Shown: positions 634 to 62,031 of the stretch, one piece after another | Layout of the letters: each line of letters starts with the position of its first letter | Numbering within the stretch: the first letter of the stretch is position 1 | Assembly: GCA_008632985.1 (NCBI GenBank) | Contig: QPGO01000005.1 | Span: 579,607 to 643,606, forward strand | Direction of reading: 5' to 3' | Length of the DNA stretch: 64,000 bases | Source: Psammoneis japonica | Taxonomy: Eukaryota | The notes under the pieces: model-generated | Told to the model about the DNA's origin: nothing | What the model saw: only the letters and a program-made list of their open reading frames with translations | Database searches by the model: none | Program-made: the position numbers and the translations under genes

Positions 634-3391
<2,758 letters not shown>

Positions 3392-4005
3392 GCAAGGTCA
3401 TGGACGTCAATACCCAACCCATTGCGCATTATGATTGTCATTATTCGTGTTATTATCAACTGTAGCTTGCTTGGTTTGGTCCGAAAGGGAGCGTAGGACA
3501 CGCCACAGCCCCATACCGACATAAGGAAGAATGTTAATTGAAACGAGATGGTGTCGATACCGACACGAAACTATCACCCATTGTTCGTCCTTGGGGGTGA
3601 TACATTTCTCAGTATCCTCTCTATATGAGTGATAAAGACGAGCATGTCAAAGAAAATAAGTGATATACTGAAACAAAAGCGCAATACAATTCGATAGCAA
3701 CAGAGAGCGATAATGAGTATCGAATCGTGGTGTAAATACAAAATCCATTTTTTCATCTTACAATTGGCCGATTTCCTTCAAATAAGCAGCATAAGTTGTT
3801 TCTATATGATGCAAAAGACTAGTAGATAGCGTTGTTATTGTTGAAAGGGTCGGCAATAGCCTAACAAGCCGCTCCGAATCTCATGGTGTGTGCTGTTTTG
3901 AGGAATAATGCGCACACGTGACTGAATCAGTCCCGTCTGACTTCCTTGAGCGGTGAGCGGCGCGCTCATCTCAGCCCAAAATAGTCCAACTCAACCTACT
4001 GTACC

Positions 4006-5270
4006 ATGGGATCTTTAGCGGAGTCACCGTCGCAATACGTTGTGGTCACCACCACATACCCAACCACCTATGGCTGTTACCGTGGAATACGCTGGTCTCC
4101 TCCCGAGCTTCTTGCCCGCACGGACAAGTCACGCTCCAACGAAACGTACTCCACTCATGCAGACGCTGTCGAGGCCGCACGCAAAGCACGAAACCGCAAC
4201 GAGTACTTTACGGATGCTTGTGAGCCGTCGGATGATGATGAAGAAGATGAGTATGACAGCGGTGACTATCGATTCACAAACACGGACCAGCCACCCTACA
4301 GATCGGCATTGTGGAGGACGATGCAGAAGAAGAATCAGATGATAACAAAAAGGAGGGGAAAGACGACGCAACTACGAAGCCATCTGTTGTCGAAATACCT
4401 TCCAATGCGTCAACCGTAAAAACGCTAATGTACAAGGGTGGCAAAGTTGATCTTGGCAAGTACGCCACGGATTGTAGCAGCGCCAAACCGGAACAAGTAC
4501 ACACTGCAACGGAGCAAGAATTGGCGACAGTCGGCCTACTCCGCATCTTGCGCGCCTCCACATCGTTGGAGGAACTTCACCTCCAATACAAGGATTGTTT
4601 TTGGCCTACCATTTCACCAGCCTTTATTGGAAAGATCCTTGCTGCCGCTCCTCATTTGCGAAAGACCCTCAAGGTGCTATCGCTCAGTCCTGGGCGAATG
4701 GATCCAGATGCTTTACCCCTTATTGGACAATTCAAGATGCTCGAACGACTGGATTTGAGCAATTGCTTTACCGCCGAATACTACCAAGATGAATATGATT
4801 ACGACGATTATGAGGAACCGAAACCCCTCCCGTACGACGCACCGCTGTCGGAATGCGTCAGTACCCTTGACCATCTTCAGCGTCTTGACTTGGGCCATGG
4901 GGATGGAGAATCCAAGCGCTACTTGCACGACTACATGGTGTCGGAAAATGTCGTGACGGACATTACCATGGATTTGTATAATGAGCGAAATGGCCGTCTG
5001 ACTATGGATGATTGCAACAAGCCAGAACGGTGGCCATCGCTAGAACGAGAGATTGCAGCTAAATGCCATGCCTTGGTGTGTATCATGCAAGACGAGGATG
5101 AAAACGAGGATATTCGAGCCATGGCAAAAGAAGAGGCCAAGACGTGTCCTACGTGTGAAACGGCGGCCAAGAAACGCTGCACCGGTTGCAAGAGGCAGTG
5201 GTACTGTTCGGAGGAATGTCAGAAAAAGGACTTTAGGATGCACAAGAGGGTTTGTATGGAGAAATTTTGA
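4006..5270 (+). CDS. MYND zinc-finger protein with LRR-like middle region; frame break near 4290-4310
   Basis: C-terminal CPTC...RCTGCKRQWYCSEECQKKDFRMHKRVC is a MYND finger. LEELHL/LERLDLSNC/LQRLDLG are LRR-like. The 5' part lies in ORF 4006-4419, a different frame. Confidence 0.7.
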
Positions 5271-14274: not shown

Positions 14275-14623
14275 CCCCCATTTTTCACCAAGTGGAAGCA
14301 CAATGCTGTGCCGGCAGGCCCTGTGTAATCCTAAAAAACAAAGTTCCACTGAAGAGAAAATTTGGGTTGTTGCTGATGTGGTGGCAGCAGCAAAGCCGCG
14401 GCAGATGGCTGGCTCTGAGTTTCATGAGCTGTGCAGCTGACATGCTTTCCAATGCCTGCCTGATTTGCGCTTGCAAGACATTCTCATGAAGGGCAGCAGG
14501 TGATGGGCAAAGCTCATCTCCAAAGCCTTTCTGGCTCTGAGGGGGGTCAAATTTGGCTTGGCAGTTGGAGCCATGAGACTGCTGGCGATCCAAGATCATC
14601 CAAGTGACAAGACACCAACACCA
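14275..14623. mobile_element. TA-depleted degenerate repeat, probably the 5' part of the LINE-like remnant interrupted by the DNA transposon
   Basis: Abrupt onset of TpA and CpG depletion. Same composition as the sequence resuming after the TSD at 23431. Confidence 0.45.
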
Positions 14624-15155
14624 GGCCTGTTCCAGCTCCAGGTGCTCCGCTTTTCATCACGCCAGATTTTCTGCGCAGTTTTCAGTGCCAGACATTTTTG
14701 TCTCCACCCGGCAGAGCTTGCACTTTTTGGCTTTATGCAAACATTCATTGTTCCAATGACGCAATGTGTTCATGATGTCAATGCTCATGTGCAACAACTG
14801 AGGTGCATGATGTGTCACAGGAAGAATCGTGTCAGTTGGCATTTAATGTTTTTCTGGCGATGCGCAGAACAACACTGACTTCTACGAACACGTGCCGTCC
14901 ACCCAACACACACCAGCCATGATGCAGCGCACCACTGTCGCCGCTCCACAACCCCCTCTTCGCCCTTGCGGTTGCATGGAACCGCCTGTTCCTTTCATTT
15001 CAAAGTTGCGTCATTGTTGTCACAGTGCGATTGCAGCTCCAAAGAGTTGCTGTCATTGTGGATGACAAAAGAGTTGCTGTCATTGTGGATGACACCATCT
15101 CTTTGCATTCTCTCATTTCGAATTCGGCAAGTCGTTCCATCATGTTTTTTTTTAC

Positions 15156-18100
15156 GTGTCACCGCGCGCCTGCATTTTTCTGGTTGCTTCTCACGTGTCG
15201 TTTTATGGTTGTTTTGCACCAGGGCCTTCGGAACTTCTACAAAACTCAAGTGTTCGCCCGAGCATTCTCCGAGTGACAGTTTCTACTGGAACAAACTTGT
15301 CTTGGTTTGTTTTCACTGTGATGCTTGCTGTTTGTGCTTCTCAGCATCTGGAGCTGCCTCAGAGGCTGCCTCTGTTCATCCGCATCACTTTCGCGGCAAC
15401 TGATGTTGGCCCCCTCTCTGGAGTGCATTTGTCGTGCAAGCGGGAGCGCAGCTTGCTGTTTGACACTTTTCGGCATCTGGAACTGCCTTGGAGGCTGCCT
15501 CTGTTCATCTGCACCACTTTCGCGGCAACTGACGTTGGCCCCCTCTCTGGAGTGCATTTGTCGTACAAACAGGAGTGCAAAAGCAGTGCACTCGCCATGG
15601 ACACGTTGGCCAAAGTAGCCTCCCAGCAGCATCCCGTTGGTGGCAGTTCTCCTCAAGCTAACGATGACTCTTCCAGCACGTTGAAGGTTTCCTTTTGCAT
15701 CCAGTGTTGCGTCGAGGCACTCGCGGAACATCACCCACCGCAGGGCAAAGCCAAAACTTGGCACACTGTGCCTCTCCAAGATGCGGTTGATCCCCTTGAG
15801 TGCCCTCAAGGTCTTGTAGATTTGAGCATCTTGACCACAGAAGATCGTGGAACAAAGAAGACGAGCCCTCTCTTTCATGTTCTTCATCACAAGAATGGTT
15901 TGGATGGGTTCAACAGTGCCAAAAACACGGAGCACATTCCGCAACACTGTTGTCGATTGGTTTTGTGAAAAATTTAACTCCGAGAATCGACCGCAACCAA
16001 ACCAATGCATCAAGGACAAGAACCAGCACCTCTTGATGTTGGTTGTGGTGCCATCAGGAATGTCGATGAGGGACGCCGTGAAGGACAAGCAAAACATTGC
16101 TGCTGTTTTGATGCACCGTGTCAAGACAAACATTGGCCTGCTTGTTGATTACGTCCATGTGACAGAGTCTCTGGTTGTGTCAGTTGGGACGGGTGATGAG
16201 AGTCAATCGATCACACCGTCGAGTCAAGGCGCACGTCCTTTTTTGATTGGACTTGCCCAAGCCATTTGCTGTGGTGTTGTCAAGAAGATGGATGCATGTC
16301 TTCATTGTCAGAAGACTTTGAAGTCTCATTGCATGGGAGTGATGGGTTTTGAGGACATCACGGACACCATGAGTGATCGTTCCGATCTGGCGGACGTCCG
16401 CAAGCACTGGGGCTGGGATGATCTCATGATGAATGATCAAGGCAACACTGTTGCCCTGTGTGCAAAGGAGAGGATTGCTCCAATGAGCTCTGCAATTGTT
16501 TTGGCATTGCCTCATTCCAGCACCGAGCATCAGAACGTTGCAACAGAGATCCGCAAGGACGAAGACTGTTGGGAGGAACCGCTTGTTGAAGGAGGATGCA
16601 TTGCTGATCATTCGTGCATTGCCAAGCGCCGATTCCACTTGGCATCTTTGGTCAACATTCAAAACCTAGAATCGTGCGATGATGAAAAGTCGACCCAAGA
16701 TTTAAAGACGCATGCGTGGCTGCCTTTTGGCGAGGTCGTGTTTCAAAGTTGGCGGCGAATTGAGTCTCGAAAGGGGGTGAAGAACAATTTTGAAATGTTG
16801 GCTTTGAAGGGGTTGGACGTCAAGCTCAAATGTGAAACAAGATCTCCCGTTCTATCTGCAAAACAGCACTGGGGTTCAATCTGCAACCATCGCTCTGTTC
16901 CAAACGAAATCGCTCAGAGGAAGCAGGTGGACAAAAAGCCACGTCGAAAACCATGCATCAGCTACAAGAAGTTGAAGAAGCCCACTGTGGATCACAGCGA
17001 CAATTGTGTTTTTCATGACGAGCATTGCAAAAGGGAGAAGCTTGAACAGTCGGATGATGACATGCAGGAAGATCCCTGCATTCCCAAACTTCCCACCAAC
17101 GTGCCGTGCAAAGTGCTCATGAGTTGCACGAGTGGCTGCCGGAGGATTTTCTCATTTGGGCCATTCGACCCCGATGACAGACTGCCATCCAAGGCCTTGT
17201 TTGACATCATTGTAGGTTGGTGGCACAACCATGCATTGTGGATTGCCTCTGGTGGTGAACACAGAGGCAGCAGCACTTGTCCGCTGGACCAGTGGTGCAG
17301 GCCTTTCAAGCCGCAACGACACTCCGAGTTGGTGGAGGCCATCACTGAAGACAAACAAATGGTTGAAGTTAACTTCCCTGCCAGACCAAGCAGGAAGGAT
17401 TGTTTCAAAGAGCCGCTTGCTCACCTTGCTGATTGGTGCAAGGCAGCTCCTGGACTTGCATGGTGCAAGTTTTGCAGAAGGATTCGTTGCCATCGTCACA
17501 TGCATCACGCTGGTGCCCGTGATGCAGGGTTGAAGGAAGAGGTGGAGGAGGAGGAAGAGGAAGAGGGGAAGGAGGGCACTGAAGAGACGGATGACCTGCA
17601 AAAGGCCAAGGCTGGCACTGCAAGGTTGCAACTGCAAGACAAAAACCAGGAGGAGGAAGATGGGGCCATGGATCAATCGGCTGAGGAAGAGGAGGAAGAT
17701 GGGGCCATGGATCAATCGGCTGAGGAAGAGGAGGAAGATGGGGCCATGGATCAATTGGCGGAGGAAGAGGAGGAAGATGACGGTGTGCAAGACGAAATCC
17801 AGGAGGAGCAAGATCCAGAGGCAACTGAGGACGAGGAGGATGATGAATGCAAGGAAGAAGTTTCTGTGGCTGCAGAAGAGAAGAGGGAGAAATCCAAGAC
17901 TGCCAAAGAGAAGAGGGAGAAAGCCAAGGCAGCTCAAGAGAAGAGGGAGAAAGCCAAGGCTGCAAGAGACAAGAGGAAGAAAGCCCAGGCTGCAGAAGAG
18001 AAGCGGGAGACAGTGGGAGACGCTGGATGCAGACGTTCGCATGAGACCTTGAAATTGACGACTGGAGTGCACAAGGATGAGGATCTCATTGGCCTTCGCA

Positions 18101-19341
18101 GCTCTGTCCCAAAACCAAGGGCAAAAGGAGACACTTCATGGTGTCAGTTGACCAAAGCGCAGCAACACCAACAAGAAAGGGATCGACTCGAGCGTGAGTG
18201 CGAAGATGCTCAAGTGATGTTGCAGGTTAAAAAACTCATTTGGATTGATCCAAGTAAATGGAACAGCAGGCGTCAGCATCCTGGCGATTCCGAAGGAGAC
18301 GTTCCTCACTTGTTTGGTTGCTTTGAAGGGAAAAACAAGGGTGTCATGTTGTGTGAACCATGGTTTGACACGCGACACAATGAAATGAACGGCCATCCCA
18401 TGAACACACGTGCAGGCCTCATTTTACGTGCCAAACACAAACCAAATGTTCCCCAGCAACTCAATCGAAAATGCAGGGACAAGATTAAGAACAAGGTGGA
18501 ATCGATTTGCAACCCACCACAGATTGCCAAACTGAAGAGATTGACTGAAGCAGAGATTCAAAAACTTCCACCTGTTGGGCGGGGAGCTGATTTCATTGGT
18601 TGCAGCTTGGAGGGGAACCGTCCTGTGTGTGCAACCCTGGATTGGGCTGAGTGCAATTTTAAGTTTCAGTTTCCAGATGTGTGGAAAGATTTGAAAGAAT
18701 TGAAGCCATCGGATGGTTGTTGCTCCTTGCCGGAAGGAAACGTGTTGATGCCATCGAACAGCAACTTGCCGACGAGCGGTCCACCCGTGAAATTCCTGCA
18801 AGGACAAAACGACACTTGCGTTTTTTCCTCCCTGGCCAGTGTTCTTGATCATGCTGGCAACGTGGAAATGAGAGACTGCATTGCTTCTCACATTCAAACA
18901 TCCACCAACTGTGCTGACACCAACAACAAGCGCATGTTGTTTGCAAAGAACATGTTGGACAGTCGTTTGAAGGGAAAATTCCCGCCTGAGAACTCAAACA
19001 TGAAGTTTTGCGGCAGTGTGGATCGAACGATTTCCCTTGCAGCAGGTGATGAATTTGACGTGACGACCTGCAATGATGACTTCATGACTTTGTGCCGTCT
19101 TGTGAACAACCACTGCATTGCCTTGCACCGTGGATGGATCTTTGATTCCAACCACCCTTTTGCATTGCCAGCAAAGGACATTGAGTGTTTCAATTGGTGT
19201 CTTGGGAATGAGGAACATGAGGTGAAACACGTGGCAAAAAAGCGTCTGCAACAAGTGTTCATGGTGCACCAGTTCGAACTTCCCAGGGCGGTGCAGCAGA
19301 AGTTGCATGCAAAAAGGAAAGCTTTTGTGTTGGATGGTTGA
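15156..19341 (+). CDS. Transposon accessory ORF (>1100 aa): acidic and lysine-rich repeats, C-terminal putative papain-like Cys-protease domain
   Basis: The 1164-aa ORF 15847-19341, with an upstream ORF 15156-15968 in another frame. The C-terminus Q.QNDTCVFSSLAS...NNHCIAL..GWIFDSN resembles a Cys-His-Asp arrangement. Only 2 Tyr in 1164 aa. Confidence 0.55.
15344..15575 (+). repeat. Tandem duplication, 129-bp period, 2 copies
   Basis: gcatctgga.ctgcct..gaggctgcctctgttcat...gagtgcatttgtcgt(g/a)caa occurs twice. Confidence 0.9.
17650..18010 (+). repeat. Coding tandem repeats: 39-bp x3 (EEEEDGAMDQSAE) and 30-bp x~5 (EKREKAKAA)
   Basis: Visible in both the DNA and the translation of ORF 15847-19341. 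Confidence 0.9.
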
Positions 19342-19364
19342 TCTAGTTGCATGACATTGCCGTT

Positions 19365-22300
19365 TCATTTGTCAGAATTGTCACTGTCACTGTCCCCTGC
19401 CGCGCTCTCATCATCCTCCACAGTGTCTTCCATGTCGTCATTCTCTCCCCCCCACTCACCAGTTTCGATGTCTTGTTCCTCCACCTCGTCCAAACAGTCC
19501 TCAAAACAATCCATTGCCTCCCGCTGTCGGATGGCATCCAGAATTCTTTCATGCTCGTCATCCCTCAAATGATGTGGATGAAGAAGTGAAGCCTCATTCC
19601 TGTTGCACGCACTTGGCAGCTCCAGATTGGCTGATGGTTCATTGAGCTCAGTGTTGGCAATTGCAATTTGCTTGAGCAACACTCTTGTCTTACATTCCTC
19701 AGCATCACCAGGAGTGTGCCATCCTCTGGCCCGTGGAACAGGGTTAAGATGCATTCCCTTGCAAACCCATTCACCGGCCTTGACAGTTGTGGGCGGGTCA
19801 AACTCTTTCCAAACCTCATCCTCCTGTGCTTTGTGGGGGAGTTCATCCCATTGCAGCAGATGGAGTCCCTCCTCAGATTCACAAGACAAAGCGGCATGGC
19901 TGTTTGGAACAATTTCCTTGGCCATTTCCTCAGTCAGGAAGTCCAACACAGATTTGCAAACCAGCTGCACCTTGTTGGCGTCACTCTTGTCTGTTTGAAT
20001 CACCTGACACACTTGCCAATCGTTCAGCCCCTCAAAGATGGGCCACAGTTTGCAAGCTCGGTTGCCACCTGCACATCGTGGCTGCTCTGTTGGCTCACCA
20101 TTTTTAACCCAAGGCCATTTCAGCTGATTCAGGCAGGCTTCACAAGCACAAGGAATTCTTCGCATCGCAGCCCAACCAATGGGGAAAAGAGGTTCAAATC
20201 AGAAATGGTGCAAGGCTCCAATGCCACAATGGCGCGTGCACACTTGCACCAATCCAGTCAACTTGACTTTGATTGAAGAGCCAAGAACTTTGTCAGCTTC
20301 CTGCAGACAATGCACCCTTTGCATTGACTTTCGAAGGGATTCCCTCTTGGCATGTTTTCTGTCACCAACTGTGCCGAAAGCATTCTTGTTCTTTGTGAGC
20401 ATTTTGTGACATTCCTTTGCACAACTGTGTGCGGCTACAACACTGTTGTCATCCATGACCAAAGCTTCAGGTCTAATTTTCCCATCCTTGTCATTGACTC
20501 CTGCAACAGTTGTGGACTGCATTTCTTGACGTGTGAGTGATTTGATGTGGGCTCCAATGCCATCAACCTCTCCTTTGCCATGTCCAGGTGCTCCAATGGC
20601 GCGGTCAAACACAATGTTGCATTTGTGCGCAAAGACAGACAACAAGTGCAGTGCCAAAGCACATCGGCATTGTTTGGCACAACCATCAGTGTGATCCCAA
20701 ATCACAAGCCACGCCTTGTGCAGGTTGCGGTTTTTTAACCAGGTGACAAACTTTTACAAGTGAGCATTGGTGGTGGTGGCATCTTGCTTGGAAGAGTCAG
20801 AGAGATGTGCATGATGTGTTTTCTGAAGCTCATTGTCAACCATTGCATTGCAAACTCTTCCTTCGATTGACAATGTTCGGTTGTTGCCATGATGGTCACC
20901 CTGAACTTGTTTGTTGAACTCTGCCTTCTGACGCTCGGAGCAGTCATGAGACGTGAACAGGCTGTTGGGTGTTGACTCAAATGCTTTGCGACGCATTTCC
21001 ATGCAATGATTTTTCCCAAGAATGACCACGTGGGGAAGGTGGCAGCGGAGCTTCTCTAAACTTGGAATGCAGTGCTCTTTCACAAAGACACTGACTGGTT
21101 TTTGGAACCTTGTCAACAAGGTCCTACATTTCACCTTTGCGTCCTTGTTCCCGTCTGGATCTGCCTCACAAACAGGACATGCTTCCATGTGCACACCATG
21201 CTTGGAACAACTTTTTACAGTCAAGTGACATTGAAACAAAACTTGGGGCGCACTGGGACTTTCATTCTGTTCCAACAATGGAGTTGGACAGGATGGGCAA
21301 TGCTCGCATTCACCCAAAATGCATTTCCAATGAGGATGATCCTGACCATTGACACTTGCCACAAATGATGGTTGCAACTGCATCTTGGGCTTCAGGATGA
21401 AGGTGATGGCCGTTGGGGCCAAACGCTTCCTCTTGACAGACACGCATTGTTTCCTCCAATTTGCCAAGGGCACTGTCATGGTTCTCCAAGTTCTCAGGAT
21501 CCTCACTCGCAAGCTTCAACCGATTTTGCTGCACCTCCATCTCTTTTAAAAGCTTCCTTCGAAACCTGTTCAATGCATCTTGTAGAAAATTGGCATTGGT
21601 GCAATCGCTGCATTGACACATGCTGCGTTGACTTGCGCTCATTTTTTGACACTGCTTGGGAATCAAAAATCGAAACATCATGTCACCAATGAGGGTCTTG
21701 CCATTGGCATCACGTGCATGTTCGAATCCGCCAACAGACACAGGCTTCAACATGTCGTTGTGCAGCTCACGCATGGACACATTGCGCAGCCATTTGTTCA
21801 CTCGTTTCTTGTTTCCATCTTCATCTTTAATGAGAGTCATGTCTCGTGTGTTGGGAGACTGCACTGTGTCGGGATGATTTGACAACCAGTGCACAAATGC
21901 CTTTCGGATCTCAGGGGAAACTTTGTGAGGACGCCGACGGGGTTGCACTGAAGACCACATGACATCATCAGTGTTTGAAAGCAATGCCTCTCTGGCAATC
22001 TTTCCCTTCTTCATTTGGTGACAAACAGTGCTCCGTCTCAGGCCAAGTGCCTTGGCGCAGTCATGGGAAGACAACTTTTCCTCTTCAGCAGATTTTTCTG
22101 GTGAACCGGAGATTCCAGTTGCAAGAGCACGGACAAACGATTTTTTGTCGTCGGTGAGGTGTTGACCATTGCTGGTGTCGTTGGCACATGCCCACATTTT
22201 GCCCAACTGCTTGGTGATTTGCAAAGCCCCAGCATTTGTTTTCGGCAATGTCAAATTGCAAGCCTGAAGAAATGGGGCCATTTCGGGAAAATGCAAAGCA

Positions 22301-23162
22301 TGCACAAATGCACAGATTTGTTGTTCTTGAGTGGTGGCGCAAGACAACACTCCTTCTCTCACTTTGACCGCTGCACAACAAAGTGCCTGTTGGGGATCTT
22401 TGTGGGTTGCTTCGAATGCATGAGGATTAAAAGTGGGGCAACCTTGGGAGGCGGTGAGGTTGACAGCAGTTGGGTTGGCCGAAGCGACAGAGGGAGTGAC
22501 GGCGGCATTGTCAGAGTCAGGGTTGGAGGGAGTGGTGGCCGCTCCTGCAGTTTGCATTTGGGAGGGGCCTGGCAGTCTTGGCAAGGACGACCCTGGACAA
22601 TGAGTGGGGTGTTCCTTGGAGGGCTTCGGGTTGAAAGCAACCAGGTCGGTGGGAGCAACGGAGGGAGTGACGGCAGCATTGTCAGAGTCAGGGTTGGAGG
22701 GAGTGGCGGCCGCTCCTGCAGTGTGCATTTGGGAGGGGCCTGGCGGTCTTGGCAAGGACGACACTGGACAATGAGTGAGGTGTTCTGTGGAGGGGTTTGG
22801 GTTGAAAGCAGCCAGGTCGGTGGGAGCAACGGAGGGAGTGACGGAGGCAGCAGAGCCGGGTTGTTCGGATTGAAGGGAGTGGCTGCAGCTGCTTCAGCTG
22901 CAGCAATGACATGGTCGGAGACCGTGGAGTGTGTTTCAAGTTCACAACGAGGCTTCTTGTTTTTGCTGTTGCCAGTCCCTGACTTGTGTCGACAGCCAAC
23001 TCCATTTTGCTTCTTCCTCTTGTTGCCTGTGGTGCACTGGAAATTTGATTGAAAGTGTGCATTGAGAGGGCTGGTGGATGAGACGGATGGCAAGTCGAGA
23101 GGACACATTTTTTTGGCGCGCTTAATCAAATTAACTGCATTGTGTCTGTAGAAATGAGGCAT
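19365..23162 (-). pseudogene. Sola2-like DDD transposase, fragmented by frameshifts/stops and Tyr->Cys/His changes
   Basis: Successive ORFs carry HDCSE..Q.DHH, HLSDSSKQD, DHTDGCAKQCRC and APGHGKGEVDG. These match the D(F/Y)SE / SD..HD / DGC..QY / HGK...DG signature I associate with Sola2-type transposases. Also MCQCSDC and RRIPCACEAC Cys motifs. Confidence 0.7.
22480..22850 (-). repeat. ~180-bp tandem repeat in the transposase N-terminal region
   Basis: SSLPR.PGPSQM.TAGAA.TPSNPDSDNAAVTPSVA occurs twice plus a partial third copy. Confidence 0.85.
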
Positions 23163-23430
23163 GTTCGGACGTCAGTTGAGTTGAAGAAGACCAAACACAC
23201 GAGCTCCGAAAAATGAAAAAGTGAGTGATCACGAGCATTTTTCACGTAGAATGGGACACCAGCCGAAAATCACATTTAGCACAATTAACTCCTTCATTTT
23301 TGATCATTTCGAAAATCGAAAGGTGAGTGTACACCCGAAAACACATGTAAAGTGTGCACTTGCCCTTCGATTTGGCAAAAAACGGATTTTGAAAAAGTTG
23401 TTTGCGGAGCACCTGGAGCTGGAACAGGCC

Positions 23431-26400
23431 ACCACCACTGTGAAACAAGCCGCTGAAAAAACAAGTTTCATGGCTGTGCCACATTGCCAAAACAATGGCC
23501 GGTCTCTTTTCAATCACATTTGACCCACAGACACTCCTTTTCCGAGATCCTCCACAGCTTCTGATGGAGCATGCACTTGGTTTGGTCAAGGACAAATCAA
23601 GTGGGTTGGGCCCAGGCCATTGCAGATCAGGGGAAGGTGTGTCAGGGCACCAATTGTGTGTGCATGTGGGACAGCACACACATGAACTGTCACCTGCAAA
23701 CAGACTCCTGCAGATGACAGACAGTTTGGATGGTTGCAGAGCAGATCCTCGCGGATCTCCTCACTCTTTTTGGTGCACCAGTGCCTCATGTTTGCCGCGA
23801 TCTTAGTGTGAGCACCCCCAGCTTGCCGCAGCTTGCTGTTGGCACAAGCGCTGCCTCTGGTGTCAATTCTAAGAGGCACAGCTCTGAAACCATTGATGAA
23901 AGGTGCAGACATTCAGCGTCAATTTTGATGATGGGGGAAAGCATGGAAGATCATTGCACATGTCACATCCCCTTCCCCCTCCCCTCCTCATTTCTCTTGT
24001 CCTTTTGTTCAGCCATGAACATTTGAGAAACTGAGCAGGAGGGTGGATGAACTTGGGGCTTGTTGCACTCCACACTCATGTTGCATTGAACAATGTTTTT
24101 TTGTTTGACACACCAACCTGGGGGAACAAGTCTCCAGGCAGCTCCTGTTGGCCAAAAAAAGTCTGAGCATCCGTGTGGCTGTTTGGGGGTTTTGCCAGTG
24201 CAATTTTTACGTGCAGCTGGCTGGAGACTTCCCCCAAACTGGGAAATTGGTTTTGAATGCAATTGTTTTGTGTTCAGTCTTGTTTCTTTGCTCCTTCGCC
24301 AAAGTGGTGTCAACTCATGGAACACAAACAGCAGAGTGAAAGCATCACTGACAAATGAGGGAGAAAGAGAAAACAGATTGCTCTGACAGTGGAAAGAAAC
24401 AAGTTGTGGCCAATGAATGGAAAATGCATGATGGGGAAAAACAAGAACAAAGAAAACAGTGTCTCCTGCTCCAGGTGAAGGTGACCTCAAAGCACAACAA
24501 ACAACTGATGTTGCAGTGGAATGCACCCCTGCAAAGGGCAGCAATGAATCCAAGGATGATGAAGGAAACTGTGTGGGTGACCTGCTCCACCTGATGCAAT
24601 GGAAATGACACTGAGTGGTTCTTGCAATTTGTGCCCTGGCTGCCCTTGGCAGCAGTTGTTGTGATGGCTGTGTTGCTGTCACAGGCCAACCATGATGGGG
24701 CCTCTGACTCCACTTCCCAGATCAACAATGACTCTGAATCATGCAATGTGGCCTTTGGAGTTTGCAACCCTGAGACGAACAAAGGTTGTGATGATTGAAG
24801 CACTTGCACCCACCATCAGCCATCATCTGAACACAGTGCATCAAGTGTGCAAGGTGGATGAGAAACAACAGTGAGCACCAGTTGCATGTGCTGAAACAAC
24901 ATGGCATTGCCGTTGCCAACTCCAAAAGCATCTTGGATTGTTTGATTTCAAAATGCAGTCTCCTCACTTCTGTCAACTGCTTCCACTTGTTGAGTCACTT
25001 GTGGAGAGAGCAGTCATGTGTTGAGTCACTTGCAGAGAGAGTCAGATGGCTGCACTGTCAAGTTGAACCCAACAGAGTTCAGAGTTTAGAGCATGCCAAA
25101 TCTCTTCAATGAAGACTTCAGAGCAGCTTTGGTGTCTGAGCAGAGCTGCAGAAGTGTTGCTCAGTGATGGCACACTTCTGGCGCAAGTCAAACCATGCTC
25201 ATGACCAAAAAGCATCTCACCTGATGATCCCAAACAGACACACTGTGTCATCACTCACCTTGCTCAGAGTGTGGCTCATGACCCCCTCCTGTCCTTGCAT
25301 TGCACCACTGAGGAAGGAGACCAAAGAGGCTGCCAAGATCAGCACAAGCCTCGCACTCCACAAACTGACACCTTCTTGGAACAACTCAACATTGAGATGG
25401 ATCTTCTGGCAAAGCCAAGGTGTGCTGGGAATCTCTTTGTTGTCTCACTCCCCCCAAACTGAGCCCCACATTTCTCTTGAGATGCAACAGGAGAGTGCGT
25501 GGGCTGTCAAACCACATGGAAAACAGCAGCTGCTTGGGACAAACAGGCAATTTTGGAGATCACAACTCCAGGTCACTTGCAGCACAATGTTGGCTTCAAC
25601 CAAACCTTGACTTCTCCTTCATCCACATGAATGATTGGATGTGTGCTGGGACAAGCTGGTGCACAGCACTGCTCAATCTTCTGACAATTGCAGCAACCAC
25701 AGCTGGCTGCTGGATTTGTCCTTGCCAACAAAAGCTGGTGCCGTCAATGGCAGACACTTGAGAGCCCCACTTGCCTTCAACAATCAGGTGTCAAATGCAA
25801 AGATGACAAAGATCATGGTCTTGGATGCCAAGCCTGTTCAGCACAGGAGATCTGGACAGTTGAGAGTTGTTGCAAAACCCAAAAAATGACTGGAAGTAAC
25901 CAGCTTGCCCACCCTGGTGTGCACAATGGCCTTCTCTGCTTGATCCAGTCATGGCATGATGAGAAACCCACTTTTCTCTTGAGGGCAGAACATTGCCACA
26001 TCAAAGAAGCTTTCACAACCCAGGCATCTCTTGGCAGCAGCTCCTCACTCCAATGTTTCCTGTTTCAGCATGAATGCTGCAAATTCTTCAAGTGCAGGAA
26101 CACAGGTTTGTGTTGGGTCTTTGGCTTGATTCAACAGCTGTGGACCATTGTGTGGGATGTGTGGCATCACCCGAATCATGCAGAATCCGAAACTTCTGAA
26201 TCTCGCCTCACCACCATGTTCTGGACAGTCACATTGGGAGAGAGTTTGCTTGCTTTCCCAATCACCCCACCCCAGCTCCACCTCACTTGACAGTTCACTG
26301 GGTTGATGGAATCTGCACAATGTAGATTTCAAATGACTGTGGCTGGAGGCAGTGACAGGGACAAAAGAAGCGGCTGCTTTCCCAACACTAATTGAAGCCC

Positions 26401-26569
26401 TTCACCAACACCATGGCGAATGCATTCATTTGTACAGTGTTTTCCGCATTTGTTTGTGACACTTGGAAGCTCTAACCCTGTCCATAGTTGGGATTGAAAG
26501 GACACTCAGCTAATCTTATCATAGGCTAAAAAGAGCTTTGTCATTTTAGGATTGAATTGAATCGAATTG
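23431..26569 (+). mobile_element. Degenerate non-LTR retrotransposon (LINE) remnant(s) ending in an (ATTGA)n-like tail
   Basis: WVFGLIQQLWTIVWDVWHH.N (~26110-26175) matches the LW...W..W..RN motif of LINE C-termini. The tail attgaattgaatcgaattg is at 26551-26569. Strong TA and CG depletion. Confidence 0.6.
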
Positions 26570-29317: not shown

Positions 29318-30774
29318 TCTCAACTTTTCGATGACAGTATTTTTAATGGAGAAAACGAAGAGCCAACTCAGTGTGGGATGTGTAAATGGAGTGCCTTCAA
29401 AGCAAAACGACGAGAGAACTCCGACGCAACCGAAGAAGACAAGAATTGACAGCGTGTGTCATCACAGAGCGTTTTCAGAACGATGCGGTGAAAGTTTGGA
29501 AGTTGGAGGCAAAGATATATCTTGGAGTTCGAAGCTCGTACTTTTCTTATAATTTGACTGACGTCATTTGGGTTCGCAAAATCTCACAAAATGTGATAGT
29601 GAAATACCGTTGGTTTCTCTCTCCCGCCACGATTTCCAAAAAATTTGAAAACGTCGAACCCGGGAAAAGTCAATCACTTTCCCATCGTTGAAACACATCG
29701 TCGTCTTTATTGCCATGGTTGCTTCAGTTCTCTGCCAAAGGTGAGTCGATCGTCTCGTTCTCGTTGCGAATTAGATCTGCTGGAGTGAAGTCATTGAATG
29801 TCGTCCGCACACGATTACCTTGTAGACCTGAAGGCTTGGGTCCTTGATGGTTTTCCTCTGTGTGTTTGATTGCGTATATCTTTGGAAGTTGGTTCAAGAC
29901 GAAACGACGATTTCCTGTCAAAGTAGTCCGTGGTTCCGACGGAGACACACCACGATTGCCAGCAAACTCGCTCCTTGCGTGTGCGCTGCATGCTTGTAAA
30001 CGTTCAATGCGGCAGCAGTGAGAGCCAGCCAGTGCACTTTCATGTACACTGTGTTGTATTAGCTCTATCAGAGGAGGGCCAGCCCCTGCTTCATTTTTTG
30101 AATGCACGCTGAACGCCTGTTGACGTCGTGGACCAAGACGGTGTGCTTGACACCCCGAAGGGCAGCCTTTTTCGTGAATGTTGTAAGGTGGTTCAGGCCG
30201 CTTGAGTTGCTCATTGAGCATCTCATATCTGATCCCCATAGGTTTAATACTCCCATGGGTCGCCGGTTTGTTGTGTCAGCCATGTTCTCCACGTCCCACA
30301 GCGTTTGAAGATCTGTTTGTGTTGTTCGTTCGTTTTGATCTTCTCGCTGAGTTATTTCATAACTCACACTTTCTTCAGATTTTGATTTCTATTTTTGACA
30401 GACGAATGTGAATGAAGAAATGCAACAATGGTGCTCTGCATATTTACAAGGTTATCAATTGCTGGTCCATGTTGACGATGGCACGGCTGCAGTGTTGTCA
30501 TGGCTCTCTCTAGAGTCCTACCCGTACGAAGAAAGCGTGATGTCTCCGTCTCTCGAGCGATTCCTTTTCAGAAGTTCTTTTTTCAAGATATGTCGTCAAG
30601 ACCAGAAAGCATGAGCAGAACTCAAAGCTGTCACATGTATCGAGAAAGGATGTCCAAACATCCTCGTTGTAGCAGCATGCCGGCTGAAGTGCTCCGTCAA
30701 GCGCCATCTGCATGTCAATTGTATCTACGGTACCTTCAAGCTTTATATCGAGTCGTCCAACAAGGCGAATCTCA

Positions 30775-34699: not shown

Positions 34700-36290
34700 A
34701 TGATATGATCAAAAGTGGTTTTCAAAAGGTTCCGTACGAAGGCCGGACGATGAATGCCCCAGTGGATGGTGAAGAAGAAAAAATGCTGCTGAAGAGAAGA
34801 CATCTGAAAGAAAGAGAGCAGTGTGGCACAAAAAAAGAAACAATGACATCAAAGAACACAATGCCATCACAAGTGTGCCATGGCCACCATCACAATCATC
34901 TGTTGATGTGTGGTGTGGTGTGTGGTGTGTGCAGAATGAATCTCTCATCACAGTGCAAACAAAGATTGCTGCACCATGCTTTGAGTTCTTCCACCATTGG
35001 ATAAAATGTTTGAAGCATGTTTCAACAAAATTGAGATGGTGCATTTGCAAGTCTGTTGAGTCAGTTGCACAGGTGATGTTGCCTCAAGAGCTGTGCCAAA
35101 AGATGGCACACTCAAGCTTTTGCAAATCTTCAGAGCAAAGTGTTGCCAAGAAATGCAGGGGGGGGGGGGCACAGTGTGGAGACAACAAGAAAACTTTCAA
35201 GCCAACCATTTGCCAAGCTGCTCTGTTCCCTGTGAGCAAAAGCTCACCATGTTGCCATGTTGTTTGCGTGGCAAAAAAAAAAAACAGCTCAACTTTCCCA
35301 CATTGCCAACAGCAGCAGAGCCACATCCCATGAGCTCTTGCTGCTTTGCTGATGAGTGTCTGTTTCAACAGCCATGGTCTTGGACAACCAAGTGAGTGAG
35401 CAACGCAATTCCTGCTCTCAAAGACATGAGAGCACCAATGCAGGCAAAAGCCCGGGGAGACACGCTCGATCGGTCTTGACCTCCTCCACGTGCTCAACTC
35501 TGTGGCGCGCTGCCGCCAGCCTCAACAGCCACACAGTGCTGAGGCAACTTTGACAAAGAGAGAGAGAGAGAGAGAATGCAGAAATTTGTCATGATGGCTG
35601 TTGGTGAAAGAGTGGGCCAGCCAATGGTGGCAGCATGCTGCCCTTTTCAGTGCTCGTGATTTCCTTCTGGGTGTGTGTGGCTCATCCAGACACATGAAAA
35701 AATGCGTCATTGTGGAGCTCTGCTTTTTCACACAAATTTGGCACCAAATGCACAAGTCATGCTGAAACTTTTAGAAAGCCTTGTCATTTGTCCAGCAGTT
35801 TCTCACCTGGGATGAAAACACATTGCACACCAGAGACAAAGAAGGGCCCAATGACCGCCAGGCCGCTCGGCCGTGCGTGGGGTGTCTGAACAAATTGAGT
35901 CTGAGGAGGCAGTCACTCCTTTTGTCTGTCCATGGGAAATGTTTGTCATGCACGTTGAATGATGGTCCTTCTCTGTGGGTGGACAATGAGACATTGATTT
36001 GTGAACAAAATGCCTCTGCACTCCAGAGGGGCATGCACTCTCTCTCCTTTGTGCACATGATGGCTCTGCCACATCGTTCCCACACCAATCGCTGATGATT
36101 CCATTGCAATTGTGTGTGGATTGATGGGAATAGAATTTGTTTTTCACATGGCAAGTTTCACAACAGAGGAAAATGTGGAGGGAAAACCAAAAACCAATGG
36201 CATTTCCCTGTCACATCATGTGGTGCGAACCCCAGCCTTCTTTGTCTGTGTTGTTGTTCTGTCGGGATGGGAGAGTGGGGCTGCTGTGCG
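34700..36290. mobile_element. Unclassified TA-depleted insertion/repeat remnant
   Basis: Same TG/CA-rich, TA-poor composition as the recognisable transposons, and no credible ORF. It sits where the PPR 5' end should be. Termini not found. Confidence 0.5.
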
Positions 36291-39533: not shown

Positions 39534-39890
39534 GGTGTGAGGGTAGTCGCAGTGTGCTTGGAACAAATCTTGCCGAGGCTTCCACAATGAAGAGTCCTCT
39601 AAAGCAACAACGAAAATGAAGGAAGACCGCAAAATGAGGCGGTGGGCACTTGTTTCTGTGGCCGCCATGCTGGTCATTGTGGGAAAGGTCATAGAGACAG
39701 GACAAAAAATGTCTATGTGTACGACCAACACATAAGCCCTCGGATGGGTGGGGCATGCTGCAAGATAAAATAAATAAGCCCTTCAACACTTTACGCTTTA
39801 CGTAGTGCCCCCTCTCTCTGCGGAAAAGGCTACTGTACTGTACTCGAACTCTACTCTACTTACTCCTACTCTATGGTAGTACTCTCTCTA

Positions 39891-41778
39891 CACAGGAAAC
39901 GAGAATCCACGGAATCGCACGGAATGTGCGCTTTTTCTCCTTATTCCGTTTGTTTATTCCGTAAAAAATGAGGCCTTTTTTCGCACTCCGTTTTGGACTT
40001 TTCTAAGGAACATGCCCTCATGTTCCAGATGGAAGTGTCAGCAATCGGAGTGCGATGGTCACACTCCGTTCCGATCACCAAGACAAGTGCGTTCCGTTTT
40101 CGTGCGGGGAGTGTGAACTTGAAACTGGAACGACCGCTTCATTCCGTGCACAGACTGAGGTCAGCGGATTTCATTTTCAACAATGTGCCATTTGTGCTGG
40201 CACAGAGCGTGTGTTGAGGCGAAAAATTGCAGCGAACATTGTCCACATTGGCCAATGTCACTGCTCCATTGTTTGATGCTCTCTGTTCATCCCTCTGTGA
40301 TGATTCAAGCGACCAGCATCAAGAGTGACGGTGAGATGTTTGACGCTGCAATGCTGCAAGACCGCATTGTCATCATGGCATGCATGTTGTTGTCGTCTTC
40401 GATCGTGGAAATTGTCATGTGGGACACTCATGTCTTCATTTTTATTTTGACTCGTTGTGCAGCAAAGAAGATGGTGCAATGATGACAGCCAAAATGTTCA
40501 ATTGACATTGGAGTGAGAGCCCCAAAAGGGTCGCACATTTTGTTCTTGTTTTGACATTGCACTGTGTTGTCAACAAATTGAGGACTTTTAAAACAAACAA
40601 TTCAAGTCACACATGTGAAGCAATTGTGTCGAAAACAAAGAAGAAAACACTCAACAACCACACGCTGATTCATTTGACAGCACGTGGAAAGACGTCGTTG
40701 AATTCTGCGTGACTTTGATTGCTCTGCAGAAGGTGCGACGATTTGTGCCAGAGGAGAGGATTCGCATCGCAGCCACATCTTCTCACACTTCTTCTCGTTC
40801 GCTCTCATAAAAAACGCAGCACAGCCGGCGGCAGAGTGCATCTGAAGCAACAACAGCAAACAACGGGAAGAACAACAGGATGAGTGAGTGGCACGATTTG
40901 TGACAATTGCAGCACACATGATGGCAAGTTGTGATGTGATTGTGCAGCACTTCAAAGGTCGTTTGCACTCACATTTTCTTCTCTCTTTTTGCTGTTGGGG
41001 TTTGTTTCCAGAGTCCAGAGGGTTCTGGTTCCAAGTGCGGCTGCTCTGCTGCTGAGAGAGTGGCGCCGCATCATCGACCGCTCTGGTTTTTGGCAAAAGA
41101 GACATCTGCACCCATCAACGGCCCACAAGTGCAAGCTTCATTTTGCTTTTTCTGTCACATTGAAGGCGTTGCTCACTTTTGACTTTGTCACATGTTGCTC
41201 ATGTTCAGGAAAGGTTGAAGTGCCCCTTGTCATCCATTGGGCACCCAAGATGATCAAAAGAAGGAATGCATCATTCTGAGATTCGGCTGAGTGGTGCAGC
41301 AAAGCGATCGGTCGTGCAAATGCAGGCAGAGCACCAGCGTGGGTGGAGCAGGAGTTCTCACTGTGCAATGGAAATGCAGCAGCACAACAACCCCATTTTA
41401 GAATTTCACTTGATTCCGCAACGTGTTCCGCATCACAAGCTCTAGAGACAACATGCCACATTCTGACCACAACACGGAAAGTGAAGCTGTTGCATTCCGT
41501 GTCATTGGTTGAGCGAAAGGAATCCACAAACGGAATGTGGCAAAAGGAACAGCAAATGGAATTTAAAATAAATGGCCTCTTTCTAACAAACGAAATGGTG
41601 AAACGTAACATGCAAATTGCGTCTTGGGTGCGGAATGAGCACATGCGTCGGAATGTGATGCGGATTTTGATGAGGCTTTTTTCGTTTTGCACCGTGTTAT
41701 TCACATTCCGTTTTGAGGCTTTTCGCGACGGAGTCGCGCACACATTCCGTGCGATTCCGTGGATTCTCGTTTCCTGTG
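39891..41778. mobile_element. Non-autonomous TIR element (MITE-like, 1888 bp), CAC termini, TA target duplication
   Basis: Perfect 38-bp TIRs: CACAGGAAACGAGAATCCACGGAATCGCACGGAATGTG at 39891-39928 and its reverse complement at 41741-41778. TA on both sides (39889-90, 41779-80). Many subterminal ATTCCG/CGGAAT copies. Confidence 0.93.
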
Positions 41779-42010
41779 TATAGTGGGAGAGAGCTACTCC
41801 TACTGGCCATGTCCTACCAGGTAGTAGCTAGCTAGCTAGAGTAGTAGCTTGCTAATCTCATTTTTAAAAGGAGAGGGCAAAATACGAATGAAACATAGAT
41901 TGCATGCTGTTTCTTACTCTGATATAGCAACACTTACATTTGCAAGAACTGCTCCCTGCCACTAAGAGCCAATCGTCGTGCTCTGATAAAAAAGCGTTCT
42001 GATAAAACCC

Positions 42011-48700: not shown

Positions 48701-49735
48701 GATATCGAAGAGAAGCTAAGGGATGAAACGTGTCTTGGAGGGTTTTATATCAATGTGAAAAGATGTGTTGCAAGATGCATTAGAATTTTTTTATGAGAAG
48801 AATTGAGTGGTGGAACTTTTGCCTTCCAAAGAATTTTCGGAGGGTTCTCAACCGGAGAAATGTGATTGGTTGCAGACACACTTTCACGATCTTTGAAAGT
48901 TCAATCTTGTGTCACCTCATCGAACTCCACGCAAAATGTGAGGGAGGAGTTCTCATTTTTTGACAGTCACTCTTGAACTGCAACGGTACATAAGGCGGAG
49001 AACAATTGGTGACGTCGAACCTGAATGCAAATACACCCCCTTAACTAATTATATGCACTATTGAATACCAATATACCCATAAATAAGAAATATTGTAAAA
49101 TATCCATGCTCGAATGTAAGCTAGTCGAACGATTCAACCTAGCGGTAATGTATGTATTATTTTTACCCTGACTTTGCTACGGTATGTTTTATGTTTTAGA
49201 GTTCAGAGTACCCCTACTCTAGTAGAGAGTAGCTAGAGAGTAGGTCCTCTCTAGCTAGAGAGTACCGGTAGCTAGAGAGTAGGGCCCTAGTCCTACATAC
49301 TCATAGTCGCAGCAGAGGGCTATACCACACTTTACTACGAGTACCAAACCAAAACCGTAACTCTAGCTAGAGTGTATTATAAGAGTGCTACCCTACATCA
49401 TTTTGGTTTGGTGATGCTGTAGGTAGCACCTATGTTTCAATCATGACCAGTTTATAAACTATAAGTACCAGGTAGAGGATCAAGCACATTGCAGCGCCAT
49501 GGCGGAAAAGATTCGTGTAGGGATGATTAACAGCGCTCATCTGCATTGCCAGTCGACCTCAGGAAGAAGTGGGACTGCAACTGCCCAGCAAGGAATCTCT
49601 TGATTATTCGGAGAAAGAAATCCAAGTATAAACGCACACTCTGTAAAGCACAAGCCAAGGGGAGCGGCTCGCAAAGACAATGAAGGTGAAAATGCCAAAC
49701 TAAGTTAGTCCTCAGACGTACGTAAAAGCTTTGTG

Positions 49736-60100: not shown

Positions 60101-60400
60101 CAATGTGCAAACATGATGTGTGCAGTGCTGTCCCTGCCATGCACTGACCTTCACAGGGAGGTCATTTCTTTTCTTTTTTTTTTTCATTCTACGTGCACGC
60201 GCCCAGCTGGCACTGTTGGTGCAGGAGGTCAGAACTCGTGGTTGGAGGGCAGCTCGGTGGTTGGGTGCACAGCACCCTCCTGCACAAAAACATGCCAGGC
60301 CTGCACAAAGCGCATGACGGCTCTGTGCACTGACCCAACGGCAGGAGGTCATTGTCTTGGTGCAACTCCATGCAATCCAATGCAGCACGTGCAATGGAAC
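54150..60400 (-). mobile_element. Ty1/Copia LTR retrotransposon (CoDi-like), highly degenerate gag-pol
   Basis: GCPTHVLDFNLWGDNKIPKWGPRSHSGQHLGVS (~57900-58000) matches the post-integrase FGCPVYVL...IPKW.PR..G.YLG motif. Also VPLTQLNKLVK (RT), LLDGCVPVAAFFSL, and ADICKK (~54250, RNase H ADIFTK). The order INT-RT-RH is Copia-type. LTRs not identified. Confidence 0.8.
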
Positions 60401-60919
60401 ATGTTGCAATGCCACGCATTAAATTTGTGTGGTGCTGCGCCGTTTCCAATCAACTCGCCCCACTCCAAAAAACACAAAACACAGCAGCGCCGCAACAAGG
60501 CCTTTGCCATCATCAATCAACCCCCAAACCCAGGCTGGCTCTGTGGAACACCTTTTTCATTCTTTGTTCCTCTGTGGAGGCTCTGCCATTTTGCTCTGTT
60601 GCCTTTTGTGTGAGTTTCTCTTGCTCTTCTTGTGGCTTGCTTTTTGGGGTGTGTTGGTGTGGTGTGTTGTTGCCATCTTGTCACATTCTGCATGCGGCTG
60701 TGTTTGTTGTTCTCAGCTGATGCCTTGTGCTCAAATGGGATCTCACATGCTCAGCTGAGAATGTTGTTGCTTGTTTTCCTCAGCTGGTTTGAAGATCTCA
60801 GCTGAGAAAGATCTCATCTGATGTCCCTCAGCTGAGATTGTGGCTCAGCTGAGACACCCTGTCATCCACCACACTCAGCCGACAATGTTGTTGTTTGTTC
60901 ACATTCTTTCAGGCCAAAA

Positions 60920-61863: not shown

Positions 61864-62031
61864 GTCGATTTGTTCAGCTGAGCATTTTGACTGACTCAAC
61901 CCCGGGTGCTGCCACCTCTGACCCATGCGTTCCTCTCCCTCTTCCATGATGCCAGGACAACTGGAAGCTTGACTGCTGCGTTGCCTTTGCCATGCAACCC
62001 AGAGTTTTACAACCAGCTCCAACTGGTGCTG

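Follow-up and report, generated by a model that had tools for sequence, protein, structure and literature searches.

Near-complete TpA loss ahead of CpG decay in the mobile DNA of a 64-kb window: a likely case of TpA-specific hypermutation

The locus analysed here, a 64-kb window (64,000 nucleotides, positions 579,607 to 643,606 of contig QPGO01000005.1), carries an 8.8-kb DNA transposon with perfect terminal inverted repeats (TIRs), inserted into an older mobile element, and raises the question of how this transposon came to be nearly devoid of TpA dinucleotides while keeping many CpG, when the older element around it and a further region of the window have lost both. The answer proposed, which we consider likely, is that mobile DNA in the window underwent targeted, TpA-specific A:T to G:C hypermutation, with a separate and slower decay of CpG on the same domains. 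All TpA and CpG statistics cover the 64-kb window and the contigs of a public sequencing run compared with it, and are given as observed-to-expected ratios (o/e).

TA-poor DNA was delimited using a 1-kb profile and then a two-state hidden Markov model (HMM) on T-followed-by-A, with edges also viewed in a 400-bp profile, which produced four TA-poor blocks (B1 to B4, Table 1) totalling about 26.7 kb, or 42% of the window, with TpA o/e of 0.029-0.068. Block edges were sharp at the 400-bp scale, two of the blocks being delimited by or lying within TIR elements, and the adjoining genes had normal TA. Inter-block DNA and host-gene stretches gave TpA o/e of 0.55-0.65 and CpG o/e of 0.87-1.00 (entire window, 0.37 and 0.71), and the contrasts between TA-poor and inter-block DNA were far beyond chance by Poisson limits. 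For the 8.8-kb element (14624-23430), TpA o/e was 0.084 (47 TA) at a CpG o/e of 0.55 (300 CG), as expected from the original prediction, made from the sequence alone, that it would be CpG-rich yet nearly without TpA. The older outer element, whose left part (14344-14623) lies across the 8.8-kb insertion from its right part (23431-26321), and the region at 54-60 kb had been described as having lost both dinucleotides, and this also held (TpA 0.04 and CpG 0.13 for 23431-26430, TpA 0.03 and CpG 0.13 for 54150-60400). CpG o/e differed between the inside and the outside of the TIRs, with 300 versus 26 CG where a share of 0.739 was expected inside (binomial p = 1.5e-16).

The relation between the two losses was then read from their joint distribution. 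In 8/8 TA-poor sub-blocks TpA o/e was 0.00-0.084 while CpG o/e was 0.12-1.04, and in-block bins of 400 bp had TpA o/e at or below 0.21 throughout, with CpG o/e anywhere from 0.00 to 1.14. Across 159 bins of 400 bp, 53 were poor in both dinucleotides and 91 normal in both, 14 were TA-free with CpG o/e of at least 0.6, and one (49201) was CpG-poor with normal TA. The two states are nested: CpG decay occurs only in DNA that is already TA-depleted, and TA is at its floor while CpG varies tenfold. The loss of CpG in mobile DNA was itself specific, with CpG o/e of 0.12-0.55 in blocks versus about 1.0 in genes. Taking the starting TpA o/e as 0.6 and the block values as measured, the ratio of TA loss to CpG loss was about 1.5 for the outer element and for the first part of B4 (52358-59999), 3.3 for the 8.8-kb element, 7 for B3, and unbounded at 63.2-64 kb. 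Because this ratio is not constant, unlike that of two simple exponentials, TA appears to level off quickly at a floor of about 0.03, whereas CpG continues to fall. The original prediction that TpA loss is separate from CpG decay and far more advanced is supported by these bins (14 versus 1 of 159), and its stronger claim that the two are uncoupled stands in part: the processes are separate and TA is ahead, but residual TA was three times higher in the younger 8.8-kb element than in the outer element (0.084 versus 0.026, p = 0.004), was correlated with CpG across 64 in-block bins (Spearman 0.42, p = 6e-4), and element ends are spared by both losses alike.

Mass balance and codon comparison were used to establish the direction of change. 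Subtracting background from blocks with strands pooled gave -0.0369 for TA and -0.0342 for CG (sum 0.0711), and +0.0707 for CA+TG, so that TA to CA/TG plus CG to CA/TG explain the entire excess. The 716-aa frame of the transposase-like gene within the 8.8-kb element was aligned with 30 homologues, a column being taken as conserved when the residue was present in at least 60% of them. At the 15 conserved Tyr columns the remnant had His (CAC/CAT) in 8, Cys (TGC/TGT) in 5, Leu (CTC) in 2, and Tyr in none. Among the other residue types, those with 6 or more conserved columns were kept at 50-100% (Trp 7/7, Pro 12/13, Cys 13/15), and conserved Met and Asn columns (4 each) at 25%. The frame as a whole contains 0 Tyr, 5.4% His, and 5.2% Cys, the medians of the 150 listed transposase homologues being 3.39%, 3.24%, and 2.91%, respectively. 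These columns show that Tyr codons (TAY) became CAY or TGY, and hence that the changes at TpA are A:T to G:C transitions. Both strands were hit about equally (8 His versus 5 Cys; CA/TG o/e pairs of 1.63/1.50, 1.71/1.91, and 1.98/1.86). Fixing of the TG or CA outcome by sequence context was ruled out, as TAC gave CAC and TGC alike in the transposase, and the tetranucleotide TG/CA fractions in blocks were near background.

In coding terms the TpA process is missense-only: no in-frame stop can arise from it, and Tyr codons (to His or Cys) are erased along with TAA and TAG, whose density fell from 15-19 to about 2-5 per kb. The transposase frame has two internal stops: a TGA at residue 439, which aligned with Arg in 20/27 homologues and so derives from CGA by CpG decay, and a TAA. 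Because TA to CA/TG changes cannot make stops, long open reading frames (ORFs) are no proof of escape from editing, and attest only to few frameshifts and CGA changes. Residual TA in the blocks was uneven among contexts, with expectations that were scaled from background and are hence crude: TTAA was the most persistent (42 of about 95 expected), followed by CTAA/TTAG (18 of about 82), while ATAG/CTAT (2 of about 130), ATAC/GTAT (1 of about 166), and ATAT (0 of about 151) were nearly or fully converted.

The 8.8-kb element has the perfect TIRs and target-site duplication (TSD) originally described (27/27 TIR identity, 4-bp TSD ACCA). A search of the window with the TIR sequence at 0 mismatches returned its 2 copies, and 0/100 shuffles gave a match. 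Single-copy contigs of the run end inside both TIRs, a 7296-bp contig stopping at 14648 and a 6312-bp contig starting at 23405, and nine loose contig ends with differing flanks meet at 14622. Summed contig depth over 14624-23430 was 1642-4154 versus about 60 for single-copy DNA, or about 27-69-fold, which puts the family of this element at tens of copies, and the flank at 24.0-26.7 kb was single copy by contig depth. One contig of run X1 (depth 71) connects the left TIR at 14644 to the right subterminal region at 23287, omitting 8642 bases, and probably represents an internally deleted derivative copy elsewhere in the genome. Run X3 gave no alignment to the window.

Table 1. Coordinates of the features discussed in the 64-kb window, with dinucleotide values as o/e
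Feature	Coordinates	Strand	Basis and remarks
TIR DNA transposon, 8.8 kb, multi-copy family, putative Sola-like	14624-23430		TIRs, TSD, contig depth
Left TIR, 27 bp, without TA	14624-14650	+	GGCCTGTTCCAGCTCCAGGTGCTCCGC; TSD ACCA at 14620-14623 precedes
Right TIR, 27/27 identical to left	23404-23430	-	reverse complement of GGCCTGTTCCAGCTCCAGGTGCTCCGC; TSD ACCA at 23431-23434 follows
Transposase-like gene remnant	19368-22893	-	527-aa ORF (21313-22893) and 716-aa frame (19368-21515), 2 internal stops
Open frame, 1168 aa, function unassigned	15835-19341	+	ORF list, printed translation; 2 Tyr only
Block B1, nested pair of mobile elements	14344-26321		HMM; TpA 0.068, CpG 0.45, CA+TG 1.63
Right part of older outer element	23431-26321		single copy; TpA 0.026, CpG 0.13
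Block B2, identity unassigned	34751-36287		HMM; TpA 0.029, CpG 0.25
Non-autonomous TIR element, 1.9 kb	39886-41783		46-nt TIRs, 96% complementary; subterminal CGGAATG repeats
Block B3, interior of 1.9-kb TIR element	40013-41563		HMM; TpA 0.047, CpG 0.70
Block B4, extends to window end	52358-63991		HMM; TpA 0.034, CpG 0.23
B4 sub-block	52358-59999		TpA 0.030, CpG 0.12
B4 sub-block	60000-63199		TpA 0.039, CpG 0.30
B4 sub-block	63200-63991		TpA 0.056, CpG 1.04
Multi-copy repeat, not TA-depleted	29342-30675		depth about 1300 versus 60 (about 20x); TpA 0.39, CpG 1.01
Divergent C5 cytosine-methyltransferase-like host gene, 768 aa	26670-28976	-	PF00145, 34.1 bits (cut-off 22), motif-IV region only

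With stops read as X, the transposase frame had 1197 homologues at E<=1e-3 (best 1.5e-117, 36% identity), which are proteins of about 1100-1200 aa. Pfam scans gave no domain in 6/6 scanned homologues and 0 families for the read-through transposase itself, and a PDB search gave no relative for the transposase profile. The 1168-aa frame on the opposite strand is well beyond chance length at one stop per about 44 codons, and had no homologue at lengths of 642-2044 aa and no Pfam match at E<=1. The long ORFs of the original prediction are thus present (1168 aa on the plus strand, 527 and 716 aa on the minus strand), but are a weaker sign of youth than supposed, since TA to CA/TG changes remove TAA and TAG. 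Its label for the element, Sola-like, is compatible with the TIRs, the 4-bp TSD, and a large transposase that no Pfam model covers: Sola2 transposons are described with a 4-bp TSD (PMC3627910), and Sola transposases as lacking a Pfam model in the text of PMC5751038. The likeness is limited by the TSD, which is ACCA here and not AT-rich, and the comparison included no named Sola transposase. Among 41 metagenome loci encoding transposase relatives, the joint signature was found in only one (L040, 1127 bp: TpA 0.10, CpG 0.20, CA+TG 1.67), and one was intermediate (L022: TpA 0.31, CpG 0.63, CA+TG 1.56); none of the 41 is closely related to the 8.8-kb element, L040 being distant. Several of the 150 listed homologues were likewise low in Tyr (below 1%) and rich in His and Cys (P0171, with 0.61% Tyr, 6.3% His, and 5.1% Cys; P0270; P0271).

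Element ends were examined in both cut-and-paste elements. In the 1.9-kb element (39886-41783) the interior alone, 40013-41563, was TA-free (0.05) and CpG-reduced (0.70), while the terminal 127 and 220 bp retained TA of 0.44-0.49 and CpG of 1.6-1.7, and 12/17 TAs lay in these ends versus an expected share of 0.195 (p = 7e-6). Similarly, the final 310 bp of the 8.8-kb element (23121-23430) had TA of 0.31 and CpG of 0.97 versus 0.06 and 0.51 inside (p = 5.5e-4). In these two elements both losses halt about 125-310 bp before the TIR ends, which would reflect either a shared targeting signal confined to interiors, or selection preserving the ends of copies that are still mobilised.

The identity of the remaining mobile DNA proved less clear than first described. 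The 54-60 kb region had been called a Copia element, a label that found no support: self-BLAST and a repeat finder gave no long direct repeat that could represent long terminal repeats (LTRs) at 54150-60400, 0/55 ORFs of at least 90 aa in 52.3-64 kb matched Pfam at E<=0.01, and no reverse transcriptase (RT), integrase, or protease motif was found there. Nor could the outer element be upheld as a long interspersed nuclear element (LINE), as its two parts (14344-14623 and 23431-26321) contained two ORFs without a Pfam match, no convincing motifs, and no poly-A at either edge. A scan of the outer element and of B2-B4 for RT, integrase, and protease motifs, with Tyr allowed as His or Cys, showed nothing convincing; at 54150-60400, heavy decay could mask the Copia domains. 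Within B4, a palindromic motif, CTCAGCTGAG, recurs at least 8 times at 60700-63000 in exact or closely similar form, partly as short inverted pairs.

DNA outside the blocks comprises host genes with normal TA, encoding P-type ATPase, MerC-like, DUF389, JmjC, DNMT-like, PPR, Cox20, SWIB, zf-MYND, and ammonium transporter proteins. The DNMT-like gene, a C5-methyltransferase-like ORF about 350 bp from block B1, had a TIGR00675 match below cut-off, its best homologues were 48-58% identical, the only named one being from the diatom Amphora, and PDB contained no relative. The multi-copy repeat at 29342-30675 also lies outside the blocks, and in its listed rows the window had CA/TG versus TA in other copies at 6 sites, and TG/CA versus CG in other copies at 6 sites, with the reverse at 1. 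The 6312-bp run contig (depth about 60, single copy) over 23405-29717 matches the window except for 2 letters. These two letters, at 23659 and 24887 within the old outer element, read TG in the window and CG in the run, and could be polymorphism, recent CpG mutation, or a methylation read-out effect. The bin at 49201-49600 (TpA o/e 1.45, CpG o/e 0.42) is locally rich in TA and has no relation to the blocks, and the sequence is complete apart from a lone N at 44390.

A process of this kind has been recorded as it happens in the chlorarachniophyte Bigelowiella natans (B. natans), where 231/302 nuclear mutations in mutation-accumulation lines fell in two integrated viral regions, and 230/231 of these were A>G or T>C, all on TpA, at a hypermutation rate of about 6e-7 per site per generation (Mettrop et al., bioRxiv 10.64898/2026.01.13.699255, 2026). 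The same preprint reports 124 TA-poor, CA+TG-rich clusters in about 95 Mb, with TE-type (transposable element) Pfam families enriched in TA-poor coding sequences (CDS), and proposes an ADAT2-like deaminase as the candidate enzyme, and its main text contains 0 mentions of CpG (bioRxiv 10.64898/2026.01.13.699255). From figures given there (211 mutations, 6169 TpA, 3132 generations), a rate of about 1e-5 per TpA per generation and a half-life of about 6e4 generations were calculated, which makes fast TA loss plausible here, but derives from another organism. Several features of the B. natans process were found in the window as well: transitions at TpA only, both outcomes (TpG and CpA) on both strands, and confinement to mobile or foreign DNA beside normal genes, together with long-term TA depletion and CA+TG gain, TE-type domains being among the TA-poor CDS in the preprint. 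The two cases differ in that the targets here are transposons and repeats at o/e 0.03-0.08, whereas the nucleocytoplasmic large DNA virus (NCLDV) region in the preprint is at Rho 0.45, and in that TA-poor DNA makes up 42% of this 64-kb window, far above the 124 clusters in about 95 Mb reported there. The host lineage is probably also another one, since 2 host genes of the window are closest to diatom or bolidophyte proteins at 42-48% identity, with named relatives in Amphora, a Bacillariaceae metagenome-assembled genome, Attheya, and Thalassiosira (diatoms), and Triparma (bolidophyte). Neither gene had a self hit in a collection of 5.8 billion proteins, and as B. natans proteins are in NCBI, the window most likely derives from another species, probably an unannotated ochrophyte-like alga. 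Full-text literature searches, supplements aside, found the B. natans preprint as the sole report of TpA-specific TE hypermutation, with nothing on diatoms.

Under targeted hypermutation, each TA would have been converted to TG or CA, about equally and to near completion, leaving some 3-8% of the expected TA, and the process would be confined to mobile and repeat DNA, with neighbouring genes spared. CpG loss to TpG/CpA would be a second, slower process, presumably via 5-methylcytosine, taking TA-free DNA from a CpG o/e of about 1 down to about 0.1 in the oldest blocks. The chemistry would be that of a TadA/ADAT-type DNA adenine deaminase, producing inosine from A with a 5' T, and because both losses stop before element ends, such a deaminase would be directed to silenced mobile DNA by the signal that also directs cytosine methylation. 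In the 8.8-kb family most of the TA loss would have happened once, in an ancestor, and TA-free copies with TA-less TIRs would later have been mobilised in trans.

This last step bears on when the TA was lost. The original prediction had TA conversion saturating quickly after insertion, which is not shown by this element, as copies of the family mostly share the TA-free state and differ mainly at CpG sites. Copies were compared on 37 of 40 listed variant rows, out of 367 in all, with three transversion rows at 30429-30434 left out. In the 8.8-kb element lie 18 of the 37 rows, comprising 9 CpG transitions (window TG/CA versus CG in other copies in 6, reverse in 3), 4 rows of CA-versus-TG discordance, representing 2 sites and both from one contig, and 5 other transitions. 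Independent loss in each copy should make copies disagree at about one in two of the roughly 350 TA sites of the ancestor. As the TG/CA outcome is not fixed by context, concordance between copies indicates shared ancestry, and the few discordances found mean that the TA-free state is mostly shared, and hence was probably inherited at insertion. Most TA loss therefore probably predates the present family copies, the 8.8-kb copy having been TA-free when it inserted and CpG decay having accumulated in place. CpG decay is ongoing and copy-specific, as seen in the CG versus TG/CA differences between copies and in the CGA to TGA stop. If the TA-free state was inherited, the perfect TIRs and TSD of this copy do not time the TA loss, and TIRs without TA, together with the internally deleted derivative, indicate that TA-free copies could still be moved in trans. 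In its strict form, in which TA was lost once in the family ancestor and only CpG decay is recorded in situ, this account is one towards which we lean slightly. It is favoured, besides the copy comparison, by the high copy number of the family, by a younger internal duplicate (22483-22673 / 22654-22844, 93% identity) that shows no CA/TG discordance and mostly CpG transitions, by the combination of TA-less TIRs with ends retaining TA that is expected of TA-free copies mobilised in trans, and by the contig that joins 14644 to 23287, as an internally deleted derivative would. It is countered by an older internal duplicate (15323-15450 / 15451-15579, 88% identity) that does carry independent TA hits (2 CA/TG discordances and 1 TA/TG difference), and by the transposase, which, Tyr-less and with stops, cannot be an autonomous source, so that an intact copy must exist, and none was seen; in addition, the variant rows are a sample, and contigs drop rare variants.

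As to chemistry, T>C before A equals A>G after T on the opposite strand, and the mass balance, the Tyr columns, and the context data fit an A target and a T target alike. A dioxygenase of the TET/JBP type could oxidise thymine to 5-hydroxymethyl- or 5-formyl-uracil, which mispairs with G and yields T to C, and in dinoflagellates T is modified in a TA context. This route nevertheless seems unlikely, as the substrate position of tRNA adenosine deaminases, which act on A34 directly after the conserved U33, fits the 5'-T preference. The B. natans study, for its part, proposes adenine deamination by an ADAT2-like protein (bioRxiv 10.64898/2026.01.13.699255). ADAT2 proteins with deaminase activity on A as well as C in DNA are cited in that preprint (bioRxiv 10.64898/2026.01.13.699255), and a single dual-specificity deaminase that removes TpA and CpG, with CpG loss not being passive 5-methylcytosine decay, would account for losses that share domains and spare the same element ends, and for CpG-poor DNA being always TA-poor. 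This is improbable, because 0.8 kb of fully TA-free DNA has a CpG o/e of about 1.0 and B3 one of 0.70, making the two activities separable in time, and because C loss is CpG-specific by mass balance, as methylation predicts, with a C5-methyltransferase-like gene in the window itself. Least probable is an artefact or selective origin, whether by modified bases mis-read as C/G, by adaptive TA avoidance, or by a TA-poor donor. The two single-copy differences between run and window at CpG sites inside a TE (23659, 24887) would suit a mis-reading, as would a run taken from the assembly's own sample, but contigs at depth 60 match 6.3 kb with 2 differences, and de novo mutations of the same type were recorded with Illumina in B. 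natans (bioRxiv 10.64898/2026.01.13.699255). Replacing all conserved Tyr of a transposase is destructive, not adaptive, and homologues elsewhere have normal Tyr.

Several observations weigh against targeted TpA hypermutation, or against parts of it. The evidence is a sequence signature, no de novo event having been observed in the window, and, TA being palindromic, A- and T-directed chemistry are indistinguishable by sequence. Pfam scans of the window ORFs gave no deaminase gene, and the public run may be the same sample as the assembly. The repeat at 29342-30675, present at about 20x, retains TA, so repetition alone is not the trigger, and its TA and CpG changes run in parallel (6 versus 6 listed), which may reflect either the background spectrum of mutation or editing at an early stage. 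The higher residual TA of the younger element, together with the correlation of TA with CpG, means that the two processes are not fully independent, and the case for shared TA loss rests on a sample, the 37 of 367 variant rows.

Other known systems resemble the signature in part. Fungal repeat-induced point mutation (RIP) converts CpA to TpA, raises TA and AT content, and creates stops. It is likewise a dinucleotide-specific transition mutagenesis at the DNA level that disables mobile DNA in place, but it runs in the mirror direction, as the process here removes TA, raises GC content, and is unable to generate stops, and the undepleted 20x repeat leaves no role for duplication as the sole trigger. 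RIP itself was ruled out by the near absence of TpA and the fall in TAA and TAG. Methylation-driven CpG decay shares with the window a CpG to TpG/CpA change limited to mobile DNA, CpG o/e down to about 0.1, and the C5-methyltransferase-like gene, but accounts for only half of the CA+TG excess and is behind TA loss in every block. ADAR prefers a 5' U, and repeat editing by ADAR or APOBEC, also deaminase-based, becomes heritable only by way of RNA or cDNA. Fixation of ADAR-type RNA edits through retrotransposition was ruled out, since the signature is carried by two cut-and-paste TIR elements.

DNA-level A-to-G editing as a defence has so far been described in one 2026 preprint, for two integrated viruses of one chlorarachniophyte (bioRxiv 10.64898/2026.01.13.699255). 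The window shows that signature saturated on ordinary transposons, seemingly in another lineage, and, relative to the main text of that preprint (bioRxiv 10.64898/2026.01.13.699255), adds the relation to CpG (same domains, TA first, TA floor), the missense-only coding effect, and the context bias (TTAA resistant, ATAT fully converted). As no stops are created and Tyr is erased, open frames in such DNA mislead both annotation and the dating of elements. For base editing, a natural T-A-specific DNA adenine deaminase would be of interest, if found. We tentatively raise the possibility that a second algal lineage, probably ochrophyte or diatom-like, runs a genome-wide, missense-only TpA editing defence against transposons, in which interiors are edited and TIR ends spared, editing shares its targeting with cytosine methylation but precedes it, TTAA is the most resistant context, and TA-free copies with TA-less TIRs are still mobilised, so that families persist as edited 'ghosts'. 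If true, the B. natans case would be not a viral oddity but an instance of a widespread eukaryotic counterpart of RIP, of opposite chemistry.

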